DNA of 56,178 nucleotides, the filler included, from Basidioascus undulatus (Eukaryota), in assembly GCA_000826855.1 (NCBI GenBank). It is 4 parts of 4 records of this genome, joined end to end, with 100 filler letters (N's around TTAATTAATTAA, not from the genome) between each part and the next. Parts side by side here need not be neighbours in the genome. Positions count along the whole stretch, not along the records: positions 1 to 29,266 come from JTLS01000132.1; 3 more parts are not named here. One strand, 5' to 3'. Position numbers and translations under genes: made by a program. Shown here one piece after another: positions 4,699 through 6,941 of this stretch. How positions within the stretch are numbered: position 1 is the first letter of the stretch; each line of letters opens with the position of its first letter. The notes under the pieces were generated by a model. That model was given only the letters and a program-made list of their open reading frames with translations. It was not told where the DNA came from and ran no database searches.

Positions 4699-6941
4699 AT
4701 GTCCCAGATCGACGCCCGCTCCCATGTTGGCCAGGAGGACTGTCAGTCCATCTTCATCTCTCCGCTCCGTTCGACGACCAGGCTGACCGACGCTGGGAAT
4801 GGCACAGACGCCGACGATGTCCGCATTATCGGCGTACGTACTGCGTTCCATTCCATGCTCGACATGCAAAGTAACTGATATAAACTCCCCCAACCTTCCT
4901 CCAGTACGACCCCCTCGTCCAGCCCGCTCTCCTCCAGCACGAGATCAAGTCCTCCGAGGCCTCCCAGCGCACGATTGCCCGCGCCCGTACCGCCGCCGCG
5001 AACGTCATCCACGGCAAGGACGACCGCGTCATCGTCGTCGTCGGCCCGTGCTCCATCCATGCCCCCGAGCAGGCTCTCGAGTACGCGCGGAAGCTCAAGG
5101 AGAAGATGGCCAGCTGGGATGGTCTCCTCATCATCATGCGCGCGTACTTCGAGGCGAGTCTTCTTTTCCGCGGCGCAGTATGGGGCATTAGAGCGAGGAG
5201 AAGGAAAATGGAGCTGACTAGGATGAGTGTTTTGCGGGGTTTACAGAAGCCTCGCACGACTGTCGGCTGGAAGGGTCTGATCAACGACCCCGATATCGAC
5301 GGCTCCTTCAAGATCAACAAGGGCATCCGCATCGCTCGCCAACTCCTCTGCGACCTCACCGAGCTGGGCGTGCCCGTCGGTGCCGAGCTCCTGGATACGA
5401 TCAGCCCTCGTAAGCACCTCTCCCAGCCAGGAAGAATAATCTTGCCCCCCGGTGCTGATATCGCGTCTTGCGGTTAATCAGAGTACATCGCCGACCTCGT
5501 CTCGTGGGGCGCCATTGGTGCGCGCACGACCGAGTCTCAACTTCACCGCGAGCTGGCCTCTGGTGTTTCTTTCCCTATCGGTAAGTTCCCCTGCTCTTCC
5601 TGGTCATTCCAACGCATCCGAATGCTAACTGAGGGGTGGTTCCTTCTTCAGGCTTCAAGAACGGCACGGACGGCTCCGTCGGCGTCGCGGTCGACGCGAT
5701 GCGCTCCTCGGCGCACCCGCACGCGTTCATGGGTGTCACCGCGCAGGGCCTGGCCGCGATCGTCCGCACCGCGGGCAACGCCGACCTGCACGTCATCCTC
5801 CGCGGCGGCACGAAGGGCACTAACTACGACAAGGACTCGGTCGCCGCGGCCGAGGCTGCCATCCGCAAGGCCCGCCCCGAGACCCACCCGTCCCTGATGG
5901 TCGACTGCGTACGTCCGCCGTTGTCGCCCTCGCAGTCTGGGATGCTGATCGGCCTTCTACGCACAGTCGCACGGCAACTCGTCCAAGAACCACCGCAACC
6001 AGCCCAAGGTCATCTCCGACATCGCTGCCCAGCTTTGTGCCGGCAACCACTCCATCACTGGTGTCATGATCGAGGTGGGTCGCCCGGACATCCTCCTGTT
6101 CATCCTTCACTTTACTGACTGCTATCCTGCCGCGACAGTCCAACATCAACGAGGGCCGCCAGGACGTTCCCCCGGAAGGTCCCTCCGGCCTCAAGTACGG
6201 CGTCTCTATTACCGACGGTACTTCTTGCCTCCCCACGCTCCTTGCCTGCTCAGAAAACCTGACGCCGTCCCGCTTCTCAGCTTGCGTCGACTGGAACACG
6301 ACCGTTGCGATGCTGGACGAGGGCGCTGCGTGCCTGGTACCAGGCGACGACGGCCTGGACGTCGACTGGGGCGATGTCCCCGCTCCTGCTCCCGCCCCTC
6401 CCTCGCGCGCGGGGGCCGAGCCCGCAAGCCGCTTCTCCACCCCCGCGCCGCTACCGGACGACTCCGCGTGTCCCATCGCGGTATTCGACCGGAAGGCGGG
6501 GGCGACGGCGGGCGAGGACGCGGGAAGCGAGAGCCAAACGGCCGCGGCGGACGGGTTCTCAAGGAATACGCTCCGCGCGAGGGAGGTCGTACGCCGCCAG
6601 TTGGGGGAGGACGCGGAGGGGAAGGTCAGCTTCAAGGAGGTTTCGAAGGGGGTCAGTTGCTTTTCCCTTCCCTTCCACTTCCTCCTCCTTCCCTTCCCTT
6701 CCCTTCCCTTCCTTTCTTCCTTGCTTGCTTTCTTGACTTGCGTGGGAACATGCGGGCTGACATTGTGGGGTGGGTCGTTCAGGCAACCCGCCGCGCCGCC
6801 TCGTCCTTCTTCTTCGAGCTCCTCGTACTCGGCACGCGCGACGTCGTCGCGCTCAAGCAGGACGCGCCGTACGCGGACATCGAGGTCCGTCCCAAGGACA
6901 AGCTCTGGGTGCCCGGCGCGAGCCAGGTCGCTGTCGCGTAA
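4699..6941 (+). CDS. ARO4: DAHP synthase (class I-alpha, Tyr-sensitive ARO4 type), reading in frame into a Rad21 C-terminal domain
   Basis: ATG 4699. Spliced motifs [62 protein letters not shown] (Gly at the position that distinguishes Aro4 FMGVT from Aro3 FLSVT), ILRGG, MVDCSHGNS, GVMIESNI, YGVSITDACVDW. DAHP similarity ends at ...VAMLDE (~6321) with no stop; the frame continues to TAA 6939-6941. Confidence 0.93.
6346..6941 (+). CDS. RAD21: Cohesin kleisin Rad21/Scc1 C-terminal fragment (winged-helix, Smc1-binding domain), fused to the DAHP synthase frame
   Basis: CPIAVFD...[17 protein letters not shown]...VSFKEVSKG [intron ~6652-6782] [42 protein letters not shown] is the characteristic Rad21/Rec8 C-terminal motif. 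No N-terminal Rad21 domain is present in the window. Confidence 0.88.

Follow-up and report, generated by a model that had tools for sequence, protein, structure and literature searches.

Results

The window, that is, the whole stretch of 56,178 nucleotides from Basidioascus undulatus that was analysed, is a chain of contigs of 29266 (or more), 8879, 8867 and 8866 bases, arranged in falling order of size. The end of the first contig is marked by a spacer at 29267..29366 that consists of 44 N, TTAATTAATTAA and a further 44 N, and the same N44-TTAATTAATTAA-N44 spacers recur at 38246-38345 and 47213-47312; the core TTAATTAATTAA carries stops in all six frames. As these spacers stand between contigs, adjacency across them is meaningless, and a chain of draft contigs of this form therefore represents a fragmented assembly, the kind in which mis-joins occur. 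We also considered whether the paired N runs, which lie ~8.97 kb apart, could represent a masked rDNA array, and rejected this reading because Rfam returned only a tRNA, the flanks were unrelated (25-26% identity at that lag) and the runs proved to belong to the spacers just described.

Pfam searches of the first contig located a PIG-N GPI ethanolamine-phosphate transferase gene that is cut by the contig start (1-852, plus strand), together with genes for eIF2 gamma (13066-14590, minus strand), an FtsJ-like methyltransferase (15701-17222, plus strand) and a branch-2 histidine phosphatase (23162-23695, plus strand). Beyond the first spacer, Pfam matches were obtained for an M16 peptidase of insulinase-like type (33377-36043, minus strand), a TFIIS/Med26 helical-bundle protein (38574-39419, plus strand), a non-specific DNA/RNA endonuclease (40619-41912, plus strand), a 2-oxoacid dehydrogenase acyltransferase (45992-46894, minus strand) and a TPX2-domain protein (54745-55590, plus strand), and a tRNA gene occupies the very end of the window (56099-56178, minus strand; Rfam RF00005, 60.4 bits). 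The G+C-rich stretch at 900-3200 harbors long ORFs on both strands that have no Pfam match.

A single spliced ORF extends over 4699-6941 on the plus strand and encodes 355 aa of a DAHP synthase followed by 162 aa of the C-terminus of Rad21/Scc1. This frame starts with an ATG at 4699, remains open for 517 codons through ten exons (4699-4741, 4808-4833, 4905-5153, 5247-5409, 5482-5580, 5652-5908, 5967-6074, 6139-6217, 6281-6651 and 6783-6941), which were first set by eye and then verified by script, and terminates with a TAA at 6939-6941. Eight of the nine introns are of the GT..AG type and one is GC..AG. We found no stop, N or frameshift at the 6321/6322 junction, and the junction word at 6312-6321 lies inside the first contig without a spacer. 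The 517-codon translation and the Pfam matches of both portions confirmed the original prediction of a DAHP synthase joined in frame, and free of stop, N and frameshift, to the Rad21 C-terminus. A joint literature search for both protein names and fusion retrieved no fusion of this kind.

The left portion (4699..6321, plus strand) comprises the first 355 codons of an ARO4-like DAHP synthase gene in nine exons, namely the first eight listed above and 6281-6321, as supported by PF00793, by identity to Wallemia and by the splicing of a read-derived contig described below (X3 record 9). PF00793 (DAHP_synth_1) covers the exons up to ~6074; the match on 4884-5474 reached an E value of 1.2e-28 and 100.2 bits and those on other exons reached 59.9, 48.8, 37.8 and 28.3 bits against a cut-off of 25.5, which assigns the product to this family. 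The exon at 5654-5908 displayed 85% identity to a Wallemia DAHP synthase over 85 residues, followed by matches to other basidiomycetes at 70-80%; 85% was the best identity in the protein collection, from which a near-identical protein was absent, and the organism accordingly ranks as a basidiomycete that has no close sequenced relative in this collection. Exons 4699-6321 are collinear with the fungal ARO4-type tyrosine-inhibited enzyme (3-deoxy-7-phosphoheptulonate synthase, PF00793) up to ...GVSITDACVDW.TTV.ML.E; we take the name ARO4 from yeast, and the feedback type, ARO4 as against ARO3, is putative. The third intron of the gene (5154-5246, 93 nt) is the GC..AG intron (GCGAGT...TTACAG).

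Unlike the fungal DAHP synthases, the window replaces the last ~17 residues, including the L-N-E/D-A-V-L-x-R-R tail, by Rad21 sequence, whereas the read-derived contigs keep this tail. The enzyme of the window ends with ...AMLDE, which leaves the C-terminal end of the family (...ML.ELN.AV..RR...) incomplete, and the last intron and last exon of the native gene are missing from the window. The Wallemia homologues continue for 17-18 residues beyond the equivalent ...MLNE, with the family tail MLNELNDAVLFRR; because these enzymes end with ...ACVDFQMTVDMLNELNDAVLFRRSQSQSNGV, the window enzyme is short by ~17 residues. An initial estimate that only the last ~10 residues were lost was therefore too low, both by the length of the Wallemia tail and by the native transcript contig, which continues with LNEAVLARRA... 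for 164 nt.

The right portion is the 3' part of a gene for the cohesin kleisin Rad21/Scc1 (6312..6941, plus strand; PF04824, alignment to the basidiomycete protein P0121, X3 record 10), and it encodes the shared LDE and the final 162 residues of the protein. It consists of an exon at 6312-6651, a CT-rich intron at 6652-6782 (GTCAGT..CAG), an exon at 6783-6938 and the stop at 6939-6941, followed by a 3' untranslated region that reaches at least to 7055 (6942..7055), as X3 record 10 covers 6782-7055. The claim that this part has a spliceable intron of its own and a proper stop was thus borne out, with the intron spliced in X3 record 10. PF04824 (Rad21_Rec8 C-terminal) matched 6783-6938 over profile positions 16-54 of 55, with an E value of 1.6e-13 and 50.2 bits against a cut-off of 22.7, as expected of a kleisin C-terminus, and this 52-residue last exon matched 110 Rad21/Scc1 proteins. 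The best PDB matches were the C-terminal ends of human RAD21, S. pombe Rad21 and yeast Scc1, all weak (E 0.018-0.6). The linker exon at 6283-6651 is poorly conserved and matched none of the longer proteins at E <= 0.001; in a pairwise comparison, its residues 49-122 were collinear with residues 484-566 of P0121, a Rad21 of 654 aa (E 8e-9), and from this alignment the part after the junction corresponds to roughly the last quarter of a normal Rad21.

In comparison to the cohesin alpha-kleisin Rad21/Scc1/Mcd1, to which it is alike in PF04824 and in the linker, the window lacks the Smc3-binding N-terminal domain (PF04825) and the first ~450-550 residues. All the listed Rad21 relatives of at least 600 aa (600-825 aa) carry both PF04825 and PF04824. 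No PF04825 was detected at 1-29262, where 134 ORFs reach 100 aa or more, or among the 150 ORFs of 35-99 aa at 800-12600. The remainder of the window also has 134 ORFs of 100 aa or more, and the 127 of them that are clear of N runs were likewise negative; the same gene thus shows no PF04825, with ORFs below 100 aa covered just within 800-12600. A nested arrangement in which the 5' exons of Rad21 lie upstream of the DAHP synthase was rejected, as no PF04825 occurs on either strand of 800-12600. The native continuations of both genes, each represented by 30 letters, were absent from the whole window at up to three mismatches, and this absence of the native tail also led us to reject the idea that the enzyme regains its tail through an overlooked donor at 6337 (CTG|GTACCA), downstream of ...MLDE. 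The two domains were not paired in relatives either: PF00793 was found on 0 of the 110 homologues of the Rad21 tail and PF04824 on 0 of the best 120 DAHP synthases, the closest protein in the collection being the one with 85% identity.

To compare the junction with independent data, contigs, rather than raw reads, from four public runs were aligned with window positions 3000-9000. X1 is a DNA run of 2025, possibly from the source sample of the assembly; X2 is a DNA run of 2014 from another study; and X3 comes from the same sample as X1. The share of the sequence words of 4600-7100 found in each run was 0.98 for X1, 0.97 for X2, 0.59 for X3 and 0.05 for X4, and X4 contained only conserved DAHP synthase pieces of another organism and is uninformative at the junction. 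All introns of the aligned stretch are missing from the X3 contigs, also in the genes that lie to the right (7381-7454, 8561-8660 and 8737-8801); on this basis they behave as cDNA, the library type not being on record.

On the DAHP synthase side, X1 record 1 (24,528 bases, depth 40) fits the window with 0 differences over 3000-6321 and then departs from it for 19,847 bases. Beyond 6321, this contig reads CTGAACGAG GTCCGT..., which corresponds to LNE and an intron donor, and it is unbroken at 6321. X2 record 5 likewise fits to 6321 and continues with the same LNE and GTCCGT donor for 171 further bases. The corresponding message is X3 record 9 (1,405 nt), which skips all eight DAHP synthase introns, including the GC..AG intron (joint 5151>5245, two ambiguous letters), and ends 164 nt past 6321 (1,241 + 164 = 1,405). 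After 6321, it continues with CTG AAC GAG GCC GTC CTC GCC CGT CGC GCC, translated by hand as LNEAVLARRA, so that ...MLDE-LNEAVLARRA forms the normal tail of the family.

On the Rad21 side, X1 record 3 (3,287 bases, depth 57) fits the window at 6312-6656 and carries 2,885 other bases upstream, ending with ...TGG GAC GAC TAC GTG ATG GGC GAC GTG CA, that is, ...WDDYVMGDVQ in the Rad21 frame. X2 record 7 (354 bases) starts exactly at 6312 without a loose end, at a depth of 8.45 compared with 16-18 beside it. X3 record 10 (2,346 nt), corresponding to a Rad21 mRNA of ~2.3 kb, matches the window at 6312-6650 and 6782-7055, the intron between them being spliced out, and it contains 1,733 nt upstream of 6312, enough for the missing ~450-550 residues of a Rad21 of 600-825 aa. 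The X1 and X2 contigs break within the Rad21 intron at a CT-rich low-complexity run (6657-6738; TTCCC/TTCCT repeats), and we gave these breaks no weight, since the CT-rich intron is skipped as a repeat. To the left of the junction the window matches the native locus for no less than 3.3 kb, and to the right for no less than 2.3 kb, with 0 differences on either side. In line with the expectation that a full-length Rad21 copy exists elsewhere, X3 record 10 and X1 record 3 carry upstream sequences, and X3 record 10 is as long as a complete Rad21 message should be.

None of the listed pieces of the four runs bridges 6312-6321, so that the junction did not appear in independent read-derived sequence, although rare variants may drop out of contigs, which cannot prove absence. 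The intron-less X3 contigs, of a library type not on record, likewise contain no chimeric transcript across the junction, just the two native messages (records 9 and 10). The original prediction had named, as findings that would speak against the fusion, the lack of reads across the junction, or an orphan contig fitting here that carries the lost 3' end of the DAHP synthase and the 5' part of Rad21. In substance the former holds for the read-derived contigs, none of which spans the junction, and both lost parts exist in contigs of these runs, though not as a small orphan contig fitting here, as the contigs extend past the junction word by 19.8 kb on the DAHP synthase side and by 2.9 kb on the Rad21 side.

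Separately from these contigs, X1 record 2, X2 record 6 and an X3 contig of high depth (318) gave imperfect matches that were confined to conserved pieces of the DAHP synthase at 5249-5286, 5788-5810 and 6178-6206, a pattern that points to a candidate second paralogue of this enzyme at another genomic site.

The two native sequences share a ten-base word, GCTGGACGAG, at 6312..6321 (plus strand), which is the point of the chimeric join: the DAHP-side contigs (X1 record 1 and X2 record 5) fit to 6321, and the Rad21-side contigs (X1 record 3, X3 record 10 and X2 record 7) fit from 6312. The contigs thus agree with the earlier placement of the join at this word, with exactly 6312-6321 common to both sequences. 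The word occurs once on the plus strand of the window. Because GCTGGACGAG encodes L-D-E in the same codon phase in both native genes (M-LDE-LNE versus Q-LDE-GAA), the chimera is in frame. Fewer than one common base would be expected on average from a blunt random join, and the ten observed indicate that this word guided the joining, whether through software that seeks overlaps, through template switching while the library was made, or through microhomology-mediated repair inside a cell. It had also been proposed that the junction resembles the branch site and 3' splice site of a Rad21 intron. This idea is unsupported, since the intron-less Rad21 contig passes collinearly through 6312-6650 and upstream of it and the frame stays open, which makes the junction exonic.

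Discussion

Our comparison indicates that the DAHP synthase-Rad21 fusion is very probably a chimeric join in a draft contig and not a chimeric gene. This reading is preferred because the read-derived contigs show both genes whole and separate, and it favours what had earlier been called at least as likely as a real fusion, an assembly mis-join. In the DNA runs of both studies, X1 and X2, each native form has an ordinary depth. A joined form that co-exists at comparable depth is disfavoured as well, since the X1 contig is unbroken at 6321, where a k-mer graph would branch.

According to the model we propose, the first contig (1-29266) would be a chimera of two separate loci joined at GCTGGACGAG, with a normal DAHP synthase gene minus its last intron and last exon presumably lying to the left of the join, and the 3' quarter of a normal Rad21/Scc1 gene with its following sequence to the right. 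In the organism, both genes would be separate and complete, each with an mRNA of its own, and the 517-codon fusion would exist in the assembled sequence only. The join may have arisen in silico or as a template-switch chimera of the library. It probably originated where a contig ended bluntly because the GC-rich Rad21 stretch (70-74% G+C) was thinly covered, and an extension or gap-closing step could have attached this end to the first sequence with the same terminal word. A blunt end fits X2 record 7, whose first base is precisely 6312 and whose depth is roughly half that of the adjacent contigs. This start could alternatively reflect a branch in the graph from a low-level joined form, yet the X2 contig on the DAHP synthase side is unbroken at 6321.

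The window resembles chimeric contigs known from draft assemblies, in which two separate loci are likewise joined at a short shared word and an apparent multi-domain fusion gene is made; it differs from the usual case in that the overlap is just ten bases, below the usual overlaps of assemblers. Several considerations weigh against a mis-join. Ten bases are shorter than the overlaps of most assemblers, and the in-silico route rests on inference; a shared word of ten bases is also characteristic of microhomology-mediated end joining in living cells; rare variants get lost in contigs, which cannot therefore show that the joined form is absent; and the reads of the assembly itself may lie outside the four runs.

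A rival reading is a genuine rearrangement, confined to the isolate that was assembled or to one of the nucleus types in a dikaryon or heterokaryon, in which a microhomology-mediated deletion or translocation at GCTGGACGAG would have created an in-frame chimeric gene. We regard this as unlikely. The ten-base word at the breakpoint far exceeds a blunt random join and would be typical of microhomology-mediated repair, the join is in frame with splice sites and stop codon intact, and the source reads of the assembly are uncertain. Against it stand the ordinary depth of both native forms in X1 and X2, with the 24.5 kb X1 contig unbranched at 6321, and the intron-less contigs from the sample of X1, in which just the two native messages appear. 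Rad21/Scc1 is essential, and a kleisin without its N-terminal domain cannot close the ring of cohesin; loss of this N-terminal part and of at least 19.8 kb past the DAHP synthase would probably be lethal in a haploid nucleus, and a haploid genome with only the truncated Rad21 copy of the window should, we presume, not be viable.

The C-terminal domain of Rad21/Scc1 binds the Smc1 head, as seen in solved Scc1-Smc1 structures. We consider it improbable that a genuine microhomology-mediated event, whether in the assembled isolate or in a single nucleus of a heterokaryon, yielded an expressed DAHP synthase that carries this Smc1-binding winged helix of cohesin. If true, the fusion would be an unprecedented link between an enzyme of aromatic amino-acid synthesis and cohesin, and its product might disturb cohesin or recruit an unrelated enzyme to the complex.

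The window and the native forms in the contigs could both be accounted for by a third locus, at which partial duplicates of the two genes are joined as an extra chimeric gene while the DAHP synthase and Rad21 genes themselves stay intact. This is very improbable, as the flanks are identical to the native loci over the lengths given above with 0 differences, the depths of the X1 contigs (40, 57 and 53) are single-copy-like, and no contig breaks at 6321 (X1 and X2) or at 6312 (X1), as a duplicated segment would force. Scarcely any credence can be given to a misreading of two adjacent genes as one, with the DAHP synthase ending through a missed splice to a small terminal exon in the window: a further intron does follow LNE directly in the native gene (GTCCGT donor), but this reading is refuted for the window, where the native donor and tail are absent at up to three mismatches, no GT donor follows the GAG at 6321, and the Rad21 part has neither upstream exons nor PF04825 in the ORFs scanned.

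Taken as a chimeric join of the draft contig, which remains our preferred explanation, the locus would provide a clean example of how an in-frame, splice-competent fusion gene can result from a chimeric contig at a ten-base shared word. Gene predictors would annotate a two-domain protein here, which would then be passed into databases. The contig at 1-29266 should be split at 6312-6321, and synteny across this point is not to be trusted.
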